In this document: positions 4,744 to 21,661 of the stretch, in pieces
Layout of the letters: every line of letters starts with the position of its first letter
Numbering within the stretch: the stretch's first letter is position 1
Assembly (NCBI GenBank): GCA_016209895.1
Contig: JACQVH010000215.1
Span: forward strand, 1 to 21,943
DNA: 21,943 nt
Direction of reading: 5' to 3'
Origin: Candidatus Hydrogenedentota bacterium
Lineage (GTDB): Bacteria; Hydrogenedentota; Hydrogenedentia; Hydrogenedentales; SLHB01
Translations under genes and position numbers: made by a program
Notes under the pieces: generated by a model
The model's input: only the letters and a program-made list of their open reading frames with translations
The model's database searches: none
Told to the model about the DNA's origin: nothing

Positions 4744-6903
4744 ATGAGTATTCCAAGTCCCAAGTCATTTGACCACCTATCTTTAGAATATCTGAACGAA
4801 GCTCAGCGCCGTGCCGTGACCGAAAGCGACGGACCCGCCTTGGTGCTGGCCGGGGCCGGGACCGGTAAGACACGGGTCATCGTCGAAAGGCTCGCTTGGC
4901 TGGTCGGCGAGAAGGGCGTGGACCCGCGGCGCCTCTTGGCATTGACCTTCACCAACCGAGCCGCCGGCGAAATGCGACAGCGCGTTGCCGCGCGCCTCCA
5001 AATGGAGCGGCTCGCCTGTTGGGTGGGGACTTTCCATTCGTTCGCATTGTACGTCCTGCGTCGGGAAATTGAACATCTGGGCCGTTCCGCCTCATTCACG
5101 GTTTTCGACGACGCCGACCAGTTCGCGCTCATGAAGCGCATCGTACAAGACCTGCCGCCCAACCTGCCGAAGGTCTCTCCGCGCGAGGCCTTGCATTGGA
5201 TCAGCCTACAGAAACAGAATCTGAGCGATCCGGCACAAAGTGCAGCCGACGACCCAGAGCACGCGCAGACCTTACAAGCGGCGTGGACCCGATATCACAC
5301 CCTCCTCGAAGGCCACAACGCGGTGGATTTCGACGACCTCCTGGTGTTGCTGGTTCGACTGCTGGCCGAACACGCCGACGTGCGCGGGCGCTATCAATAC
5401 CGGTACCAGTACGTCCATATTGACGAGTATCAGGACACCAACCGCGCGCAGTACATGATTGCGCGATGGTTGACGGAGTCCCACGGCAACCTGTTCGTCG
5501 TCGGCGACGAGGACCAGAGCATATATTCCTGGCGGGGCGCGACAATCCAGAATATCCTCGACTTCGAAAGGGACTTCCCGAAAGCGCGTGTCTTTCGACT
5601 CGAACAAAATTACCGGAGCACGGCGCCGGTCCTGGCGGCCGCCAACGCGGTGGTCGCACACAATCAGCGTCGGCTCGGCAAGACACTTTGGACGGCCCAG
5701 GAAGGCGGCGAATCGGTACGGTTCTATCAGGCAAAAGACGGCGAGGACGAAGCGCGATTCGTGGTGGAGGACATAGGGAAGCGCGACCTGGCGCCACGGC
5801 AGGTTGCGGTGCTCTTCCGTACCAACGGGCAGGCGCGGCTGATGGAAGAGGCCCTGCGCCGGAAAGGACTGGCCTACGTCGTCATCGGCGCCGTTCAATT
5901 CTACGGTCGCAAAGAGGTCAAAGACATCCTCAGTTATTTACGGCTCTTGGTGAACCCTGCGGACGATCTCTCGGTCCGCCGCATCATTAACGTGCCCGCG
6001 CGCGGCATCGGCGCCGCTACCGCCGAGCGGTTCGAGGAGTACACCAAGCAACGCAACGTATCGCTGTTCCAAGTGCTGCGGGACGTGGAAACAGACGAGA
6101 CGCTGACTCCCCGGTCCCGAACGGCCGTTGGAGCGTTCGTGCACCTGTTGGATGACCTGAGATTGGCAGCGCGCAGTTCTCAAGTCGCGCCACTGGTCGA
6201 GACGCTACTCGCGCAGACCGGCTATCGCGCCTATGTCGAGCACACCGATGAGCGAGACTACCAGACCCGCCTCGAGATCGTGGATGAATTCGTATCCGCC
6301 TGCGCCCAATTCGACGCCCAGGGCAAAGCCGGACTGGACAACTTTCTGCAGGAACTGGCGCTGTACTCCGACGTGGACGCGTACGATCCCGACACCCCGG
6401 CGGTGACGCTTTTGACGTGTCACAGCGCGAAGGGCCTTGAGTTTGATCACGTCTACCTGATAGGTTTGGAAGAGGGCCTGCTGCCCCACGCCGGCGCCAG
6501 AGATTCGGACGAGGAGCTGGAGGAAGAGCGGCGACTCTGTTACGTGGCCATGACGCGCGCGCGGAAAACGCTCACGTTGGCGGCCGCGCAGACCCGGCTC
6601 ATTTACGGCGAACCGCGGGAGGCGGCCAGGTCCCGTTTCGTGGGCGAGATTCCCCCGGAACAACTGGTTCAGGTGGGTCAGGACGCCGCGAGGCGCACTG
6701 CGGCGCCAGTTTCGCGACCGGCCTTGGGGCCGCTAAAGATGGGAACCCGAGTGAGGCATGCCGCGTTCGGCGAGGGTATTGTAATGTTTACCGCGGGCAC
6801 GGGAGCGAAACTGCGCGCGCGCATCCGTTTTCAGACCGGACGTACCCGCGAGTTCATGGTCGGCAAAGCTCCATTGGAGATATTGGAAGGAAAGAAGCGG
6901 TGA
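4744..6903 (+). CDS. uvrD: ATP-dependent DNA helicase, UvrD/PcrA/Rep superfamily 1
   Basis: 719 aa. Begins with the UvrD-type N-terminus (LNEAQRRAV...LVLAGAGTGKTRV, Walker A). Further matches: DEYQDTN (motif II), TFTNRAAGEM, VGDEDQSIYSWRGA, QNYRST, and a C-terminal tudor-like domain (GTRVRHAAFGEGIV) as in PcrA/UvrD. Confidence 0.9.
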   Translation: MSIPSPKSFDHLSLEYLNEAQRRAVTESDGPALVLAGAGTGKTRVIVERLAWLVGEKGVDPRRLLALTFTNRAAGEMRQRVAARLQMERLACWVGTFHSFALYVLRREIEHLGRSASFTVFDDADQFALMKRIVQDLPPNLPKVSPREALHWISLQKQNLSDPAQSAADDPEHAQTLQAAWTRYHTLLEGHNAVDFDDLLVLLVRLLAEHADVRGRYQYRYQYVHIDEYQDTNRAQYMIARWLTESHGNLFVVGDEDQSIYSWRGATIQNILDFERDFPKARVFRLEQNYRSTAPVLAAANAVVAHNQRRLGKTLWTAQEGGESVRFYQAKDGEDEARFVVEDIGKRDLAPRQVAVLFRTNGQARLMEEALRRKGLAYVVIGAVQFYGRKEVKDILSYLRLLVNPADDLSVRRIINVPARGIGAATAERFEEYTKQRNVSLFQVLRDVETDETLTPRSRTAVGAFVHLLDDLRLAARSSQVAPLVETLLAQTGYRAYVEHTDERDYQTRLEIVDEFVSACAQFDAQGKAGLDNFLQELALYSDVDAYDPDTPAVTLLTCHSAKGLEFDHVYLIGLEEGLLPHAGARDSDEELEEERRLCYVAMTRARKTLTLAAAQTRLIYGEPREAARSRFVGEIPPEQLVQVGQDAARRTAAPVSRPALGPLKMGTRVRHAAFGEGIVMFTAGTGAKLRARIRFQTGRTREFMVGKAPLEILEGKKR

Positions 6904-7970
6904 CGCTGGACGAACTACGACAGCGGATAGACGATATTGATGCGCAGATACTTCGGCTTCTAAACGAACGCGCCCAGCGCGCCGTCGAGATCGGCGAGAT
7001 CAAGCGCACCACGAATGCGACCTGCTACGTGCCGGAGCGCGAGAAGATCATCTATGAGAAACTGAAGCAGGAAAACCCCGGACCGCTGCCCGATAAGGCG
7101 ATCCAAGCCATATACCGCGAAGTGATCAGCGCCACCCGCGCCCTCGAAAAGCTCATTACGGTGGCCTTTCTGGGCCCGCGCGATACCTTCAGCCACATGG
7201 CCGCGCTCCGAGTTTTCGGCGCGATGGCCGAGTATCATCCGCTGGCCACGATTGACGACATTTTTGTCGACGTCGAACGCCGGCGCGTAGACTACGGCGT
7301 GGTGCCGGTTGAAACCGCAATGGGCGGGGGAGTCAGTGACACCTTGGACCGGTTTATCACGTCCGACCTCAAGATCGTCAACGAGATTATGCTCCATATT
7401 ACTCAGAATCTGTTGTCCAACAGCCCGATCGATACTATTACGAAGGTGTATTCAAAGGCGCAGTCATTCGTTCAGTGCCGCAACTGGCTGAAAGCGAACC
7501 TGCCGCAGGCGGAATTGCTGGAAGCCGCGAGCACGGCCGAGGCCGCCCGTATTGCCGCACAGGAGCCGGGCGCGGCGGCGATAGCCAGCGATCTCGCGGC
7601 CGAGACCTTCCACGTTAAAGTCGGCGCCCCGGGCATCGAAGATGCCCCGCACAATTTCACGCGATTTTTCGTCATCAGCCATCACATCGCGAAACCGACC
7701 GGCCATGACAAGACCGCCATCCTCTGTTCCATCAAAGACCGGCCTGGCGCCTTGTATGCCCTGCTCCTGCCGTTGGCCTCAGGGGGCATCAATCTATCAC
7801 GAATCGAGTCGCGACCCTCCCGTAAGAAGCCTTGGGAGTACGTCTTTTTCATTGACTTGCTTGGCCACTGCGAGGACCGTAATATTAAGGACGCATTGGA
7901 ACAAGTCGCGAAACAGTGCGCCGAATTGAAGGTCCTCGGTTCCTTCCCTCAGGGCGAAATCGAAGAATAA
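6900..7970 (+). CDS. pheA: Bifunctional chorismate mutase / prephenate dehydratase (P-protein) with C-terminal ACT domain
   Basis: GTG start overlaps the helicase stop (GTGA at 6900-6903). N-terminal chorismate-mutase helix (LDELRQRIDDIDAQILRLLNERAQ), then a prephenate dehydratase domain (VAFLGPRDTFSH...ESRP) and ACT region (ILCSIKDRPGALYALL). TAA stop at 7968-7970. Confidence 0.9.
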   Translation: MTLDELRQRIDDIDAQILRLLNERAQRAVEIGEIKRTTNATCYVPEREKIIYEKLKQENPGPLPDKAIQAIYREVISATRALEKLITVAFLGPRDTFSHMAALRVFGAMAEYHPLATIDDIFVDVERRRVDYGVVPVETAMGGGVSDTLDRFITSDLKIVNEIMLHITQNLLSNSPIDTITKVYSKAQSFVQCRNWLKANLPQAELLEAASTAEAARIAAQEPGAAAIASDLAAETFHVKVGAPGIEDAPHNFTRFFVISHHIAKPTGHDKTAILCSIKDRPGALYALLLPLASGGINLSRIESRPSRKKPWEYVFFIDLLGHCEDRNIKDALEQVAKQCAELKVLGSFPQGEIEE

Positions 7971-7974
7971 TGAA

Positions 7975-8124
7975 GTCAGGAGTCAGGAGCATGCAGACAG
8001 AGTGGTACGAACGTACGAGATATTCCCGACAAGAGTCGCAGCGATGGTTGATGCCCGTACCTGCGGACTTTCAGTTGGTCTCACGTCCTTATTCTGACTC
8101 CTGACTCCTGTCTCCTGACTCCTC
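7975..8124. repeat. Inverted heptamer-repeat arms bracketing a 105-nt unique core. Left arm is (GTCAGGA)x2 at 7976-7989. Right arm is (TCCTGAC)x5 with one TCCTGTC variant at 8092-8126.
   Basis: Read directly. The arms are reverse complements of each other (13/14 match) and are themselves tandem 7-mers. The core contains a small palindrome GTACGAACGTAC (8005-8016). The element lies in the pheA-to-PPIase intergenic gap, ending 20 nt before the GGAGGT RBS of the next gene. Confidence 0.6.
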
Positions 8125-8146
8125 AAGCAACTTACTGGAGGTCAAA

Positions 8147-8959
8147 GTGAAAAAGAAAATTGCAGCTACCATAGTGCTGGCGGTAGGAGTTCTATGCCTG
8201 GTCTTGATGTATCAGTTCTTGCCGGAGCGGATCACGAAAGAGCGCAGCCAAGAAGCGCGGGCCGTGCTGGACCGTCTGGCCAAGGTCAACGCGCAAGCCG
8301 TGGCCAAGGACGAACAAACGCAATCTACAACCGAAACCCGGGAAACCGAAGAATCTGCCGATGCCTCCTCCGATTCCACAGCACCGCCGGCTCCGGCCTC
8401 GGGCGGCGAGGCGGCTCACGAAATCAAGATGGAAGGAGTCCCCGACATGTTCAAAGTGCGATTCGAGTGTTCCAACGGCACGTTCGAGGTCGAGTGTCAT
8501 AAAGAGTGGGCCCCTCGCGGCGTACAACGGTTTTACACACTTATCAAAGAAGGGTTCTACAACGACTGCCGCTTCTTCCGCGTCGTCCCCAACTTCGTCG
8601 TCCAGTTCGGTATCGCGGGCGACCCGGCGATCAATGCCAAATGGAGCGAGGCGACGTTTCCAGACGATCCGGTGACGCAGCAAAACGTCGAAGGCATGCT
8701 CACCTTCGCCAAATCCGGGATGCCGCATAGCCGCAGCACACAACTTTTCGTCAATACCAAAAACAATTCATCGGGGTTGGACAGTATGGGATTTGCTCCC
8801 ATCGGCAAAGTCATTAGCGGTATGGAAGTTGTCAAGGCCATAAATGCGAAGCACGGCGAGAAACCGAATCAAATGAGAATCCAGCAGCGCGGAAACGCTT
8901 ATCTGAATGAACAATTCCCGGACCTCGACTACGTAAAGACGGCGACGATAATCGAGTAG
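8147..8959 (+). CDS. Cyclophilin-type peptidyl-prolyl cis-trans isomerase with N-terminal membrane anchor and acidic low-complexity linker
   Basis: GTG start with GGAGGT 6 nt upstream. N-terminal KKKIAATIVLAVGVLCLVLMY anchor, a Thr/Glu/Ser-rich linker, then a cyclophilin-like domain (FKVRFECSNGTFEVE..., FFRVVPNFVVQFGIAGDP, MLTFAKSGMPHSRSTQLFVNT, GKVISGMEVVKAI). Confidence 0.75.
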   Translation: MKKKIAATIVLAVGVLCLVLMYQFLPERITKERSQEARAVLDRLAKVNAQAVAKDEQTQSTTETRETEESADASSDSTAPPAPASGGEAAHEIKMEGVPDMFKVRFECSNGTFEVECHKEWAPRGVQRFYTLIKEGFYNDCRFFRVVPNFVVQFGIAGDPAINAKWSEATFPDDPVTQQNVEGMLTFAKSGMPHSRSTQLFVNTKNNSSGLDSMGFAPIGKVISGMEVVKAINAKHGEKPNQMRIQQRGNAYLNEQFPDLDYVKTATIIE

Positions 8960-13587: not shown

Positions 13588-13590
13588 AAT

Positions 13591-13758
13591 GAGCAATGAG
13601 CAACGAGCAATGAGTCACGAGAGACAAGTATCGAGTACCGAGTGACGAGTAACAAGCAATCAGGGACCAAGAACCGGAAACCGGAAGCTCCGAACCAGGG
13701 ACCAGAAACCAGAAGCCAGGGACCATCCACTAGCCACTGACCACTGGTCACTGAACAC
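13591..13758. repeat. Array of 24 phased degenerate heptanucleotide tandem repeats (consensus nAGnnAC; units GAGCAAT, GAGTGAC, CAGGGAC, CAGAAAC, CGGAAAC, TGACCAC ...) filling the entire gap between convergent genes
   Basis: Read directly. From 13591 the sequence parses without slippage into 24 consecutive 7-mers. 21 of the 24 end in C and 19 carry A at position 6. It begins 4 nt after the TGA of the + gene and ends at the stop codon of the - strand Dabb gene (13758-13760). Confidence 0.85.
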
Positions 13759-14168
13759 TACTCTTTCGGCCAGTAGTCGATCACCCAGATTTTCTCGAGA
13801 AACGGTCGGGCCATGGCGACGAAATCCTGGTGGGCTTGGTGGGCGCGGTACGCTTCCATGGATTCGACGTCGTGGAAGGTTAGGAGAAAGCAGTGGGTGA
13901 AGCCTTCAGCGCGGGACTGGGCGTTCACGTCCGTGCCCCATTCGAAATCGCGGATTTCGGCGATCTTAGCCGGTAGTTGGCGAAACGCGTTCTCTATCGT
14001 AGCAATCTGTTCCGGCGACGTGCCCTCTTTGAACTTGAACAGGACCACGTGGCGCAACAGGGAATGATCTTGTGTCGGCGACGTAGCGACGACCGAGCCC
14101 TTGATCGAAATGCAGGCAGGTAACAACAACCCGGTCAAAGCGATTGACAACCACAAACTTCGCTTCAT
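13758..14168 (-). CDS. Dabb-family (stress-responsive dimeric alpha/beta-barrel) protein with lipoprotein-type signal peptide
   Basis: Real gene is the C-terminal 136 codons of ORF 13758..14735: MKRSLWLSIALTGLLLPAC (lipobox LLPAC), then HVVLFKFKEGTSPEQIATIENAFRQL...HQDFVAM, typical of the Dabb/stress-responsive protein fold. Its ATG overlaps the TGA of the upstream membrane-protein gene (ATGA at 14165-14168). The long N-terminal extension in the ORF track is out-of-frame overlap with that gene and was rejected. Confidence 0.7.
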   Translation of the reverse strand: MKRSLWLSIALTGLLLPACISIKGSVVATSPTQDHSLLRHVVLFKFKEGTSPEQIATIENAFRQLPAKIAEIRDFEWGTDVNAQSRAEGFTHCFLLTFHDVESMEAYRAHQAHQDFVAMARPFLEKIWVIDYWPKE

Positions 14169-15106
14169 TGCCGTTCCTCCTTGCTTAGCCGGTTGATTTC
14201 CCGAAAGGCGGGAGACACTTCTTCCAATCGAGATTCGGCAGCCGGGTCCGCGCCTTGGTCCTCGGCGGCGTCGAGTTGATTGATCGCAACCGCCGTGAGG
14301 GCAATCGGATCGAAGACAATCCATTTCACCATGAAGCTCAACACCACGGCGGTGAGAAAAAACACCAACCGCATCGTGCTCCATCCGGTACTTGCCGGCA
14401 AGAACATGGCGATACTTCCGAGGGGAACGAGGAAAAGCACCGTGAGCGGGACCAATAGCGCATAGCCGACGGCGCAAAATAACGCCGCGAGACGTAGCGA
14501 GTCCGATCCGGAATGGGCGTACTTGACCACCGAATCCTTTACGGTAGTGAAAACTTCCCGACTTTCCGTTCGAAACACCTTGGCCAGAATCACGTATGGC
14601 AGGTAAATCAGAGCGCCATTCGCGGCAAGTTTCGCCAGCTTGGGAGAACCGGCAAGCCTCGCGATTGGTACCAGTGACTCCAGGGAGAGTACCGAACGAT
14701 GGGTATCGCGCAGTGCGCGGAGAACGAGGCCACACAGTTGCCCAGCGCCGGTCGCGCTACGGAACCTGTCCGACACACGGGAACGCGCCCAGTTCGGTTC
14801 CGAGACGCCCCACGGCAACTGGCCTTCGTTGAGGATTTCCGTAATCAACGCGAGGTAGCCCAGCTTGATGGATGCGAACGGATCGAATCCGGCGTAGCGC
14901 GCCGCGAGGGGCAGTGCGCTCAAGACTGCGGAGAGAATGAAGAGGAGCAAGCTTGCGCCAAAGCCGAATGCCAGCCCGACGAAGCCGAGGATCATCAAGT
15001 ACGCGATCACACCTGCGCCGACCACGCCGTAAATCCCAGCCCGGTAGATCAAGTACTGCATCGGCTGGAACGCGATCTGCACCACCCGGCCCCAGTTGAC
15101 ATCCAT
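14165..15106 (-). CDS. Hypothetical polytopic integral membrane protein (about 313 aa)
   Basis: ORF 14165..15133. The second ATG (MDVNWGRV.., 15104-15106) is preceded by AAGGAGGACAGGACG, a strong SD at correct spacing. At least 6 hydrophobic helices and an acidic C-terminal tail. Overlaps the start of the Dabb gene by the 4-nt ATGA. Confidence 0.6.
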   Translation of the reverse strand: MDVNWGRVVQIAFQPMQYLIYRAGIYGVVGAGVIAYLMILGFVGLAFGFGASLLLFILSAVLSALPLAARYAGFDPFASIKLGYLALITEILNEGQLPWGVSEPNWARSRVSDRFRSATGAGQLCGLVLRALRDTHRSVLSLESLVPIARLAGSPKLAKLAANGALIYLPYVILAKVFRTESREVFTTVKDSVVKYAHSGSDSLRLAALFCAVGYALLVPLTVLFLVPLGSIAMFLPASTGWSTMRLVFFLTAVVLSFMVKWIVFDPIALTAVAINQLDAAEDQGADPAAESRLEEVSPAFREINRLSKEERQ

Positions 15107-15203
15107 CGTCCTGTCCTCCTTCCAGCACTGCATCCGGCGACCGCACCAACGAGACTATTCTCCGTATTTTCTTCCCCGGAGTCCAACTTTGTGCCAATTG
15201 GGG

Positions 15204-15312
15204 GTAAGGGACGAAAGGGACCCATGTAAGGGACCCAAAGGACTCTGTTCTTCCGGGCACGGAGGAGGAGAAGGACGGCAACGACGCCAAGGACAACGAC
15301 GACACCAGGGAC
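15204..15312. repeat. Cluster of direct repeats of AAGGGAC(C) / AAGGAC / CAGGGACC (at least 7 copies) in the 207-nt gap between the ferredoxin stop and the membrane-protein start
   Basis: Read directly: TAAGGGAC 15205-15212, AAGGGACCC 15215-15223, TAAGGGACCC 15227-15236, AAAGGAC 15237-15243, GAAGGAC 15273-15279, CAAGGAC 15291-15297, CCAGGGACC 15303-15311. The word AGGGACC is also a recurrent unit of the heptad arrays at 13591-13758 and 15675-15765. Confidence 0.45.
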
Positions 15313-15313
15313 C

Positions 15314-15673
15314 TTATGCCGGCGAAGGACGTTCGACAACCGGTGGCGGTGACTGAGTGGTCACGTTTGATGGCTGGCCGTCGAGGGTGGCGATAATTGA
15401 CTCGAGCAGATACTCCAATTCCGCTTCCGATACGTGGCTGAACCAACGGTTTTCTGGGAAGACCATCAGGTTGGGACCATGCTCGCACTTATCCTGGCAG
15501 CCGGACTGGCTCACGCGGATTTTGCTCTGAAGGTTCCGCGCTTTGACCATGCTTTTCAATTTATCGCGGAGTTCTTTGCCGCCTTTATTGGCACAGCATT
15601 CACGCTCGCCCGGCTCGCGCTGGTTGCAACAAACGAAGACGATCTTCTGAAATGGGAGGGCATGTTCTAGCAT
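15314..15673 (-). CDS. Thioredoxin-like [2Fe-2S] ferredoxin family protein
   Basis: 119 aa with the cysteine pattern of thioredoxin-like 2Fe-2S ferredoxins / NuoE-like proteins: IVFVCCNQR...GERECCANKGG...SGCQDKCEHGPNLMVFP. Start ATG at 15671-15673. The upstream 48 nt consist entirely of heptad repeats that supply an AGGAA SD-like sequence. Confidence 0.65.
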   Translation of the reverse strand: MLEHALPFQKIVFVCCNQREPGERECCANKGGKELRDKLKSMVKARNLQSKIRVSQSGCQDKCEHGPNLMVFPENRWFSHVSEAELEYLLESIIATLDGQPSNVTTQSPPPVVERPSPA

Positions 15674-15674
15674 A

Positions 15675-15765
15675 GGTTCCTGGTCCCTGGTTTCTGGTTC
15701 CCAGTTATCGGTTTCCGGTTTTCAGTTACTCGGCATTCGGTACTCGGAACTCGTCACTTGTAGCG
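15675..15765. repeat. Array of about 13 phased heptanucleotide repeats (plus-strand units GGTTCCT, GGTCCCT, GGTTTCT, GGTTTCC, CGGTACT ...), the reverse-complement family of the 13591-13758 array; extends into the last 13 codons of the large minus-strand gene
   Basis: Read directly. The reverse complement gives AGGAACC, AGGGACC, AGAAACC, GGAAACC, AGTAACT, AGTACCG, AGTGACG, the same words found in the array at 13591-13758 but inverted. The stop codon of the large gene (15722-15724) and its C-terminal residues LQVTSSEYRMPSN are encoded by repeat units. Confidence 0.75.
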
Positions 15766-20109: not shown

Positions 20110-20688
20110 ATGACAAAAGCGTGTGCGCTCAATCCGCAAGCAATTGATTCCAACACGTATCCGGAGACGCTGCCCAACGTCTGCGTCGAAGGGCCGCGTG
20201 GACCCGTCTGCGCATGGTTTTCCGAGCGTGGCTTATCCCGACTCCACCTGTGTGGGCTGGACCTCTGTACCCTGTGGAATGCCGCCGCAATAGGCATGTA
20301 TCGGCGGCGGCATCATCAGCCAACGAGGAACGAAGCAGACCCGCGGGCCGCACGCTTGGCGGCAGCCTTGAGACGGTACCTCCAGGGAGAACCGGAAGAC
20401 TTCTCCGACGTCGAGATCGACCTAAGCGCCGGCACCGAGTTTCAGCAGGCGGTCTGGGAGGCGGCGCGCAAAGTCGCGTGGGGTAGACTATCCTCTTACG
20501 GAGACTTGGCCCGTCTGATAGGCCGTACCACGGATACGGCGCGCGCCGTAGGCCAGGCGTTGGGCGCAAACCCCATCGCTATCGTCGTTCCCTGTCACCG
20601 GTTCGTCGCGTCAGACGGCTCCCTCGGCGGCTTCTCCGGCGGACTCGAATGGAAGCGGGCGCTGCTGCGGCTGGAAGGACACTTCTGA
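20110..20688 (+). CDS. ogt: Methylated-DNA--protein-cysteine methyltransferase (O6-alkylguanine-DNA alkyltransferase)
   Basis: Active-site motif IVVPCHRFV (PCHR), helix-turn-helix region (YGDLARLIGRTTDTARAVGQALGANP) and C-terminal GGLEWKRALLRLEG. ATG at 20110 is 9 nt after a GAAAGG-type RBS. The ORF-track start at 20104 is a TTG two codons upstream. Confidence 0.8.
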   Translation: MTKACALNPQAIDSNTYPETLPNVCVEGPRGPVCAWFSERGLSRLHLCGLDLCTLWNAAAIGMYRRRHHQPTRNEADPRAARLAAALRRYLQGEPEDFSDVEIDLSAGTEFQQAVWEAARKVAWGRLSSYGDLARLIGRTTDTARAVGQALGANPIAIVVPCHRFVASDGSLGGFSGGLEWKRALLRLEGHF

Positions 20689-20775
20689 GTGCGGAATGTG
20701 GATTGTGGATTGCGGAATGAACCAATTACGGATTGTGGAATGTTGAACGCCAAGAGCCAAAGGCCAAAGGAACCG
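20689..20775. repeat. Phased heptanucleotide repeat array immediately after the ogt stop: GTGCGGA, ATGTGGA, TTGTGGA, TTGCGGA ... then TTGTGGA, ATGTTGA, ACGCCAA, GAGCCAA, AGGCCAA, AGGAACC
   Basis: Read directly. Begins 1 nt after the TGA of ogt. 7-nt register with one 2-nt slip around 20724-20732. Unit family (nTGnGGA, nnGCCAA) differs from the 13591 and 15675 arrays. Confidence 0.65.
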
Positions 20776-20842
20776 ACTTATGGTTTCTCGCGTTGCGTGA
20801 ATCGGTCAAACCGAGACTGAGCGCGACATCCCCATTTGCCCA

Positions 20843-20858
20843 GTCAAGCAAGCTTGAC
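20843..20858. terminator. Palindromic hairpin GTCAAGC-AA-GCTTGAC between convergent ogt and esterase genes
   Basis: 7-bp perfect arms read directly, located mid-way in the 220-nt convergent intergenic gap. No U-tract. Could equally be a protein-binding palindrome. Confidence 0.3.
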
Positions 20859-20873
20859 CGTGGCGCCCGATCA

Positions 20874-20908
20874 TCGTCGTTTAGAATTTAGAATCTGCAA
20901 TTTGGAAT
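20874..20908. repeat. Short heptanucleotide repeat array TCGTCGT, TTAGAAT, TTAGAAT, CTGCAAT, TTGGAAT abutting the stop codon of the minus-strand esterase gene
   Basis: Read directly; five consecutive 7-mers with consensus TTnGAAT ending at the TGA (20909-20911, minus strand) of the hydrolase gene. Confidence 0.5.
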
Positions 20909-21661
20909 TCACTTCTTCTGTTTTAGCAGCCACTGGATGGTCTTCGCATCGCCATAGGCGTCGTCCCAGGAATTGTGCTTTGCCTTGGGGATTTCCGTGT
21001 ATTTGATCTGCCCGCCCGCCTTCTTCACCGCCTCGACCATTTTGCGGGACTCCGCGGGCTTGACGACGTCGTCCTCGGCGCCGTGAAACGCCCAGATCGG
21101 CAAGGCCGCAAGTGCTGTGGCGTCCTCCTCTTTTCCGCCGCCACAGATCGGCATTAACGCGGCGTATACGTCCGTGCGCTTTGCCCCCAACATCCACGTG
21201 GCGTAGCCACCGAGGGAAATTCCGGTCAGGTAGATGCGGTTCGGGTCAATGTTGTACTCCGCGCGGGTTTGTTCGAGCGCTTTCTCGATATGCGATACGG
21301 CGCGGTCCCAGAAACCCAACCCCGGGCACTGCGGAAAGACCACCACGCACGGGAATCGCTCCGGATGCTTGCGGATGGCGTGACCGATCCCCACGTCGGT
21401 CGGTAGCAGCCCATCGTTGCCGCGTTCCCCGATCCCGTGCAGAAACACGATCAACGGCCACCCCTGCGCCCGGTCATAGTTGCGCGGCACATAGACGGCA
21501 TAGGCCCGTTCCTTGCCGTCTGCTACCATGGTCTTATTGAGGAAGCCCGTCACAATCCCTTGGCTCTCTGCCGCTTGGCCGCTGATTGACTTCGTCGTAG
21601 CACAACCGTTGCTCAACATCACGACCGCAAACACAGCCACGAAGGTCCATTTCACGTTCAT
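20909..21661 (-). CDS. Alpha/beta-hydrolase family esterase (phospholipase/carboxylesterase-like) lipoprotein
   Basis: Signal peptide with lipobox (VVMLSNGCATT). Esterase core motifs: LIVFLHGIGERG (oxyanion region), nucleophile elbow GISLGG, and C-terminal FHGAEDDVV / His region (KAKHNSWDD). Confidence 0.8.
   Translation of the reverse strand: MNVKWTFVAVFAVVMLSNGCATTKSISGQAAESQGIVTGFLNKTMVADGKERAYAVYVPRNYDRAQGWPLIVFLHGIGERGNDGLLPTDVGIGHAIRKHPERFPCVVVFPQCPGLGFWDRAVSHIEKALEQTRAEYNIDPNRIYLTGISLGGYATWMLGAKRTDVYAALMPICGGGKEEDATALAALPIWAFHGAEDDVVKPAESRKMVEAVKKAGGQIKYTEIPKAKHNSWDDAYGDAKTIQWLLKQKK

Follow-up and report, generated by a model that had tools for sequence, protein, structure and literature searches.

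Inverted heptamer arrays between pheA and a peptidyl-prolyl isomerase gene of a Hydrogenedentota bacterium: a putative STRR-type intercistronic RNA stem

A contig of 21,943 nucleotides from an uncultured Hydrogenedentota bacterium (JACQVH010000215.1, 59% GC; the whole contig is called the window in the following) contains, between pheA and the gene of a peptidyl-prolyl isomerase (PPIase), two short arrays of 7-nt repeats that are complementary to each other and enclose a stretch of about 100 nt. What kind of element is this: a transposon, a regulatory RNA or a product of repeat growth? An initial annotation had offered a miniature inverted-repeat transposable element (MITE), a long-stem terminator or attenuator for pheA, and a structured small RNA (sRNA). 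We favour another answer. The element is the same kind of feature as the short tandemly repeated repetitive (STRR) sequences of cyanobacteria, and it is most probably a slippage-derived inverted heptamer pair which would act, if at all, as an RNA stem between two cistrons; we give this reading a probability of about 60%. It is not a member of the STRR family by descent, because the host is a Hydrogenedentota bacterium and not a filamentous or heterocystous cyanobacterium.

Layout and predicted folding of the element

The inverted arms of tandem heptamers around a core were confirmed by reading of the sequence, by Tandem Repeats Finder (TRF) and by an inverted-repeat finder, and the neighbouring genes by Pfam assignment. 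The element is composed of the following parts.

7968 to 7973, + strand: tandem stop codons TAA (7968–7970) and TGA (7971–7973) that end pheA, read from the sequence; the left arm starts directly after them
7974 to 7989, + strand: left (5′) arm, purine-rich, (A)GTCAGGA twice plus G, found by TRF and as an inverted-repeat arm
7990 to 8093, + strand: unique core or spacer of 104 nt, 52% GC, with only self-matches and a fold z-score of −0.31
8092 to 8126, + strand: right (3′) arm, pyrimidine-rich, TTCTGAC TCCTGAC TCCTGTC TCCTGAC TCCTCAA, found by TRF
7971 to 8125, + strand: whole predicted stem-loop, from the helix list of the minimum free energy (MFE) structure at −63.9 kcal/mol
8121 to 8141, + strand: possible weak secondary helix of the last CUCC of the right arm with the Shine–Dalgarno (SD) sequence of the PPIase gene, suggested by the MFE structure of 7962–8185
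7991 to 8104, + strand: 37-codon open reading frame (ORF) across the core with its stop inside the right arm, from translation; probably fortuitous

The left arm contains GTCAGGA twice in exact form (7975–7981 and 7982–7988), with a unit that matches at six of seven positions just before them and degenerate units that reach to about 8001. TRF reports period 7 and 2.3 copies at 100% for 7974–7989, and two SD-like AGGAG motifs (7978–7982 and 7985–7989) lie within the arm. The right arm is built from TTCTGAC (8092–8098), TCCTGAC (8099–8105), TCCTGTC (8106–8112), TCCTGAC (8113–8119) and TCCTCAA (8120–8126), for which TRF gives period 7 and 4.3 copies at 91% between 8094 and 8123. The earlier count of two GTCAGGA units was hence exact, while the five TCCTGAC units listed with it are two exact copies, two copies with one mismatch and one partial copy. 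The right arm is rich in CUCC (anti-SD-like), supplies TGA in all three frames and ends about 10–12 nt before the SD of the PPIase gene. According to the repeat finder the arms are 100% complementary over 13 nt and 79% complementary over 28 nt, with 91–107 nt between them. They are of unequal length (16 versus ~30 nt) and have no fixed termini, as is the case for ordinary simple-sequence arrays. The element thus combines a tandem 7-bp unit, an intergenic position (pheA stop at 7970, PPIase SD at 8137) and paired complementary arrays, which are features of the STRR-like class.

We found that the stability of the predicted fold comes from these arms. Folding of 7965–8135 (171 nt) as RNA gave −63.9 kcal/mol with z = −4.58, and none of 200 shuffled sequences was as good, so that the proposed check of the folding energy against shuffled controls came out in favour of structure. 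The 104-nt core alone has z = −0.31 and is no better structured than its shuffles; the arms account for the whole excess stability. The reverse strand of the element folds with −64.0 kcal/mol (z = −3.46), and folding as DNA gives z = −2.5. The predicted outer stem pairs 7971–8005 with 8089–8125 through 31 bp in seven short helices, the longest of which has 9 bp. In the fold of 7962–8185 the SD of the PPIase gene has a mean unpaired probability of 0.30. The last unit of the right arm can pair with it in this prediction, and to this extent the suggested influence on the downstream gene stands: the model indicates that the right arm may weakly occlude the SD. The small palindrome that had been noticed in the core, GTACGAACGTAC (8005–8016), consists merely of two self-complementary GTAC with 4 nt between them. 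When the sequence was read for period 7, the core gave no such signal past about two units beside each arm; this, together with its z-score, led us to reject the core as a degenerate palindrome or as a row of degenerate heptamers.

Heptamer arrays in the window, in related loci and in Nostocales plasmids

The link between the element and the other heptad arrays of the window, which the initial annotation had drawn, is real as a relation in kind. The window contains seven period-7 arrays versus 0.05 in shuffled sequences, an enrichment of about 100-fold, and these are spread over four intergenic regions of the 21.9-kb contig. Only period 7 is enriched; the other periods from 4 to 12 gave zero to two arrays each. 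The arrays are essentially intergenic and adjoin stop codons at a distance of 0–4 nt. Arrays are absent from the short spacers of the window, among them the two divergent ones, and from the tandem region of 240 nt that follows the PPIase gene. Besides the element itself, the following regions are concerned.

13588 to 13760, + strand: sister array that fills a whole 170-nt convergent intergenic region with the purine-rich heptamers AATGAGC, CGAGTNA, AACCGGA, GACCAGR and CCACTGA, recognised by inverted homology to 15670–15765
15670 to 15765, + strand: partner array rich in pyrimidines that repeats part of 13588–13760 in inverted form at a distance of 1.9 kb, recognised by the same homology
20687 to 20909, + strand: third intergenic region of the same layout, with GGAWTGT and GCCAAAG arrays, a core of ~110 nt and a TTTAGAA-type array

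The first two regions are 67% identical overall in inverted orientation, about 40 nt of the alignment being nearly identical, and share the units CGAGTNA, AACCGGA and GACCAGR; between them lie 1.9 kb with genes on the minus strand. These genes are located at 13758–14735 (Dabb domain) and 14757–15673, and in a minus-strand transcript the two arrays could form a long-range stem around them. The last ~10 codons and the stop of a 1166-aa TIG-domain ORF (15722–15753) lie inside the 15670–15765 array, so that the C-terminus of this protein is repeat-encoded. The third region separates a convergent pair formed by an MGMT-like gene and an alpha-beta hydrolase gene; the GGAWTGT and GCCAAAG arrays directly follow one stop, the TTTAGAA-type units adjoin the other, and the arms are just weakly complementary. 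The CCACTGA and ATTGCG-type units of the window resemble Nostoc 7120 intergenic repeats tabulated in PMC2408588.

For comparison we used the window together with 160 loci found through pheA (161 sequences; the related loci, which carry L numbers here, total 1.08 Mb). Per 10 kb, this set has 0.16 arrays in coding DNA; in intergenic DNA the density is 6.2 between tandem genes, 10.3 between convergent genes and 1.65 between divergent genes. In the Hydrogenedentota locus L010, four consecutive intergenic regions each show a heptamer array, a spacer of 10–55 nt and a complementary array, and the heptamer differs each time. The same layout was found in L097, L116–118, L121, L135 and L148 and in the Armatimonadota locus L063. 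Every locus has its own heptamer, and the partner arm nevertheless matches it. In L097 (743–837) an intergenic hairpin of −65 kcal/mol has the arms (TTTAGGG)n and (CCCTAAA)n, the plant-type telomere heptamer, which is probably a coincidence. In the AT-rich lineage of L118, T-runs follow the heptamer hairpins at 1022–1100 and 1945–2028 (for example ...CTGAATTCTGTTTTTT), and these hairpins look like ordinary intrinsic terminators with heptamer-repeat stems.

When plasmids were searched by BLAST with the spacer, all matching records but one from Pseudomonas were of Nostocales, the right arm being the matching part. It matches (TGACTCC)n arrays in plasmids of Nostoc, Halotia, Aulosira and Calothrix with 90–97% over ~35 nt. 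These plasmids show the order of purine arm, core and TGACTCC arm with the same GGAGTCA/TGACTCC heptamer, around cores of 57, 64, 125 and 353 nt; the 57-nt core belongs to a Halotia plasmid (CAGAAGT-type arm on one side, (TGACTCC)x5 on the other) and the 125-nt core to Nostoc UHCC 0302. The heptamer is thus common to Nostocales, to the sediment lineage L116–118 and to Hydrogenedentota. The plasmid pNPUN01 of Nostoc punctiforme (L167) contains four inverted pairs in 50 kb. One of its segments (1559–2001) has an annotated 366-nt gene of a ‘four helix bundle protein’ between (TCAGGAG)7 and (CTGACTC)5, which receives the GGAG before its ATG from the purine arm and its TGA stop from the pyrimidine arm; the 37-codon ORF of the window is laid out alike. 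Phage records gave no match to the spacer, and the plasmid matches are to the repeat array alone. The remaining arrays of the window gave no Nostocales matches among the plasmids and are probably too short for this.

The arms also follow a rule of polarity. In the inverted pairs of the pheA-centred loci (the window, L010, L097, L117, L118, L121, L135 and L148) the 5′ arm is purine-rich in 12 of 12 cases, 10 of them clear and two marginal (binomial p = 5e-4). In pNPUN01, which was counted besides, the purine-rich arm is 5′ in 4/4 pairs; since the second 50 kb of this plasmid are nearly devoid of arrays, the polarity sample is small. Among the purine arms SD-like motifs (AGGAG, AAGGA, AGGAGG) are frequent, and the pyrimidine arms resemble the anti-SD. 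The polarity of a palindrome is the same on both strands, and therefore any process that runs from 5′ to 3′ meets the purine arm first. Together with this constancy of orientation we observe a complete turnover of the repeat itself. This turnover can be very fast: the metagenome contigs L117 and L118 share 95.4% identity along 4.4 kb of genes, yet they use different heptamer families at two orthologous intergenic sites (about 1900–2025 and 5200–5330), namely AGAATTC/AGGAGTC in L118 and CAAATGA/AATTTGG/AGGCAAT in L117. Within each of the two genomes, both sites use the same heptamer family.

Proposed mechanism and competing explanations

In the reading as an STRR-type pair, a GGAGTCA array and a complementary TGACTCC array bracket an unrelated 104-nt spacer in an intercistronic gap of the conserved uvrD–pheA–PPIase gene row. 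The arms would have grown through replication slippage of the 7-nt unit, their complementarity would have been kept because pairing was selected for or because one arm served as template for the other, and the element would not be mobile as a unit. On transcription the arms would close the ~31-bp outer stem (about −64 kcal/mol for the whole structure) right after the stop codons of pheA, and this stem could be a barrier or a processing site at the pheA 3′ end. It might make the polymerase pause or terminate independently of a U-tract, shield the transcript from 3′ exonucleases or be cleaved by an enzyme of the RNase III type. It would in this way partly uncouple the PPIase gene from pheA, and the surplus 3′ CUCC may pair with the PPIase SD and dampen translation. 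We infer that what counts is pairing in the RNA; a DNA cruciform is unlikely because the arms are 104 nt apart here, and other pairs have 353 nt or even 1.9 kb between them. A long spacer strongly disfavours the extrusion of a palindrome as a cruciform.

The genes on both sides of the element were assigned with Pfam.

6900 to 7970, + strand: pheA (P-protein) with the domains CM_2, PDT and ACT, that is chorismate mutase, prephenate dehydratase and ACT
8147 to 8959, + strand: membrane-anchored cyclophilin-type PPIase (Pro_isomerase), with a GTG start conserved in relatives

The PPIase gene is preceded by the SD GGAGG (8137–8141) and starts with GTG at 8147; AGGAGG followed by the start GTG AAA AAG is also present in L161, L163 and L164. 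The pheA product is 100% identical to a protein of a ‘Candidatus Hydrogenedentes bacterium’ metagenome-assembled genome. Other pheA loci reached at best 72–74% identity in genome and metagenome scans, the best of them with 72% or less being from Hydrogenedentota metagenome-assembled genomes, and in a protein search the next relative has 74%. The nearest of these (pheA 74% identical) keep the uvrD–pheA–PPIase synteny, and the spacer there has only 37–78 nt. These spacers are short and not significantly structured; therefore, to judge from the syntenic relatives, the 150-nt hairpin is a lineage-specific addition rather than a regulatory device under conservation. We also considered whether the relatives share a small stem at this position and rejected the idea, as their spacers fold like shuffled sequence, and because they have no significant structure, no conserved ancestral stem was replaced by the element. 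Heptamer arrays are few in L161, which is the nearest relative on a long contig (pheA 74%). This contig contains instead at least five dispersed copies (at 1224, 3471, 6538, 12548 and 18115) of a ~45-nt element made of the 9-mers GTCCGATCC/GTCGGATCC, a REP- or MITE-like family; in L005 a 9-mer array resembling it, GTCCACNNT, is located after pheA, and L026 has CGGTCGGAT units.

Several observations weigh against an RNA stem with a function. The hairpin is not conserved in the relatives, whose short spacers fold no better than shuffles (z about 0), and with the next pheA only 74% identical there is no close relative that would allow covariation to be seen at the locus. Hairpins in tandem-gene contexts fold better on the sense strand in four cases and on the antisense strand in four, with one tie (this element has −63.9 versus −64.0 kcal/mol); because the sense strand folds no better, G-U asymmetry gives no sign of selection at the RNA level. 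A canonical intrinsic terminator is not supported, as the 3′ flank CAAGCAACTTAC contains no U-tract and the structure has a 104-nt interior instead of a small loop. Some arrays of the window, such as 13588–13760, have no local inverted partner. Moreover, heptamer pairs also occur in direct, same-strand orientation around a spacer, in L026 (5063–5095 and 5373–5391, GATAGGG) and in L075 (5036–5052 and 5124–5154, CCTGAAT), so that the inverted orientation is common and not universal. Finally, within array-bearing loci, arrays are present in 15/55 tandem, 9/22 convergent and 4/20 divergent regions (Fisher p = 0.41), so that, when regions are counted, those with the 3′ end of a gene are favoured only as a trend.

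Much of this would also be expected if the element were a neutral by-product of mutation, in which slippage arrays pile up under weak selection, inverted duplication or quasi-palindrome correction pairs the arms, and neither pheA nor the PPIase gene is affected. Such an origin fits the near confinement of the arrays to non-coding DNA, their extreme turnover between 95%-identical genomes, the lack of strand asymmetry in folding and of a significant enrichment by intergenic class, the nearest relatives without the element, and the existence of unpaired and directly repeated arrays. It also agrees with the over-representation of heptamer simple sequence repeats (SSRs) in many bacteria, perhaps as about 7 nt are in contact with the polymerase (Mrazek 2007 as cited in PMC4679880; PMC4692102). 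Neutrality does not predict that the arms are complementary at every locus despite differing heptamers, nor the strict polarity (12/12, p = 5e-4, and 4/4 in pNPUN01), and the arrays of this contig adjoin stop codons within 0–4 nt. We therefore regard a purely neutral origin as a serious contender that is nevertheless unlikely. A MITE or foldback-like non-autonomous transposon, with the heptamer arms as terminal inverted repeats to which a transposase binds and the core as cargo, would explain the inverted termini, the small size, the intergenic position and the presence/absence difference from relatives, and also that L117 and L118 have differing elements at orthologous sites while one heptamer family serves several sites per genome. 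Eukaryotic foldback-type elements such as Galileo have inverted arms of tandem subrepeats around variable middles, which counts for this view as well. It requires features that we do not see. No target-site duplication (TSD) of at least 4 nt was found for any pair of boundaries within 7966–7981 and 8116–8131 (±8 nt), the best being 3 nt; blastn-short and nhmmer searches of the window and the 160 loci gave no second copy of the core; the cores of nine arm-bracketed instances, this element and eight others, are mutually unrelated; no transposase domain was detected in any scanned ORF of the window; and phage records gave no match. The arms moreover differ in length, and the heptamer varies by locus in this contig and in L010. 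The MITE thus lacks, in the contig and the related loci, two of its defining features, the TSD and multiple copies sharing a core, and with the same arms around unrelated cores elsewhere we rejected it as a very improbable reading.

The attenuator that had been proposed for pheA is wrong because the element is positioned downstream of the gene. A discrete structured sRNA was rejected as well, given the core z-score of −0.31 and the absence of an Rfam match and of a sigma-70-like promoter: Rfam 15 gave no matches in the window at gathering thresholds, a permissive search of 7850–8250 returned only a chance-level RT-17 (17 bits versus 40.4 needed, E = 1), and a promoter and terminator scan of 7700–8400 found nothing at the element. 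Another form of this explanation is a small gene or leader-peptide switch, in which translation of the 37-codon ORF would melt the hairpin and control the PPIase gene. This ORF has the AGGAG of the left arm 8 nt upstream of its ATG, a frame that is open through the whole core and a TGA from the right arm, a combination with a rough chance estimate of 0.02–0.05, and the annotated 366-nt gene of pNPUN01 lies in the same layout. It gave no Pfam match and no tblastn match in the related loci, is absent from all relatives, and has no credible homologue among 1.84 billion representatives, where only two spurious internal-repeat proteins appeared. Of all the readings weighed here, the small gene or sRNA is the least probable. 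An action at the DNA level, through protein binding sites, a cruciform or a slippage switch in which the unit number sets PPIase expression (phase variation), meets the 104-nt spacer as a strong obstacle to cruciform extrusion, and the different heptamer at each locus argues against a single binding protein. Such an action would fit with a structure of equal quality on either strand and with an array at about 12 nt from the SD. Copy-number switches in intergenic SSRs are described as established in other bacteria in PMC12721329. No flanking promoter elements are present whose spacing the array could alter, and a housekeeping PPIase would be an unusual target of phase variation, so that we consider a DNA-level role highly improbable.

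Compared with these explanations, the slippage-derived heptamer pair with a putative RNA stem remains our preferred reading. The initial annotation had stated that, with a unique core, no TSD and a folding energy not below that of shuffled controls, the element would be just another heptad array pair. It is indeed close to this, save that the arm-driven folding lies below the shuffles. For annotation a false lead is thereby removed, since the element is neither a transposon nor an sRNA gene nor an attenuator of pheA. A more far-reaching interpretation is that heptamer-armed inverted pairs form a class of their own among the intergenic elements of bacteria and are actively generated, as may be read from the purine-arm-first rule, the replacement at fixed sites between near-identical genomes and the shared heptamer. 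We regard it as improbable. If true, it would imply a dedicated mechanism that generates or homogenises the arms, or ‘arm-only’ foldback-like elements that spread horizontally, and a conserved function at the RNA level, for example in bracketing and processing whatever the arms enclose, be it a spacer, a small ORF or two genes in 1.9 kb. In any case, the rule that the purine arm is 5′ and the full turnover at fixed sites are testable constraints on models of repeat origin and function.

Relation to known repeat systems

MITEs (Correia, Nezha) and the REP/BIME elements (repetitive extragenic palindromes and bacterial interspersed mosaic elements) resemble the element in being small, non-coding and intergenic, with inverted termini or palindromes and RNA stem-loops that affect neighbouring genes. 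They are defined by conserved sequence in multiple copies, by TSD in the case of MITEs, and by a cognate transposase, none of which was found here. Intrinsic (Rho-independent) terminators likewise place a stable stem a few nucleotides after the stop codon, and some hairpins of the L118 lineage even have the T-run; the element differs from them by the missing U-tract and by a 104-nt interior in place of a loop of 3–8 nt.

Closer parallels exist among heptamer repeats. In many bacteria these are reported to exceed expectation more than any other class of long SSR, perhaps through polymerase slippage (Mrazek 2007, as cited in PMC4679880). TAACTGA direct repeats are known from marine Beggiatoaceae, some Cyanobacteria and Bacteroidetes (MacGregor 2015, PMC4679880). 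Like the arrays described here, they are intergenic, consist of 2–6 units and adjoin genes, they provide stops in all three frames as TCCTGAC does, and one heptamer is common to unrelated phyla without an evident mechanism of transfer. In contrast to our element, they are nearly all direct and located just upstream of start codons, with one inverted case reported. In Xanthomonas, GGGAATC SSRs form 70–75 inverted heptamer pairs per genome (Rehm et al. 2015, PMC4692102). These share with our arrays the intergenic over-representation, the convergently oriented array pairs able to form stem-loops and the rarity between divergent genes, and a further likeness is that their length varies among close relatives while the type is kept (PMC4692102). 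The Xanthomonas repeats differ in that essentially one G-rich, quadruplex-capable unit is used genome-wide, whereas here G-runs are absent and the unit differs per locus.

The closest match is the STRR family itself. In filamentous cyanobacteria, 7-bp STRR repeats form hairpins between genes, for example between hupS and hupL (PMC2670836). Their function is unassigned, with transcript stability, translational coupling and termination as proposals (PMC2670836). The element shares with the hupS–hupL spacer of Nostoc, Anabaena and Lyngbya the tandem 7-bp units, the intergenic position and the complementary arrays between co-oriented genes, and differs by its uncultured Hydrogenedentota host with 59% GC, by arrays of only 2–5 units and by the many different heptamers within 22 kb. 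Knowledge of heptamer hairpins in heterocystous cyanobacteria goes back decades, and inverted pairs have been seen in Xanthomonas. The loci compared here add uncultured Hydrogenedentota and Armatimonadota to the known hosts of STRR-like heptamer hairpins, and in one case the heptamer is identical.

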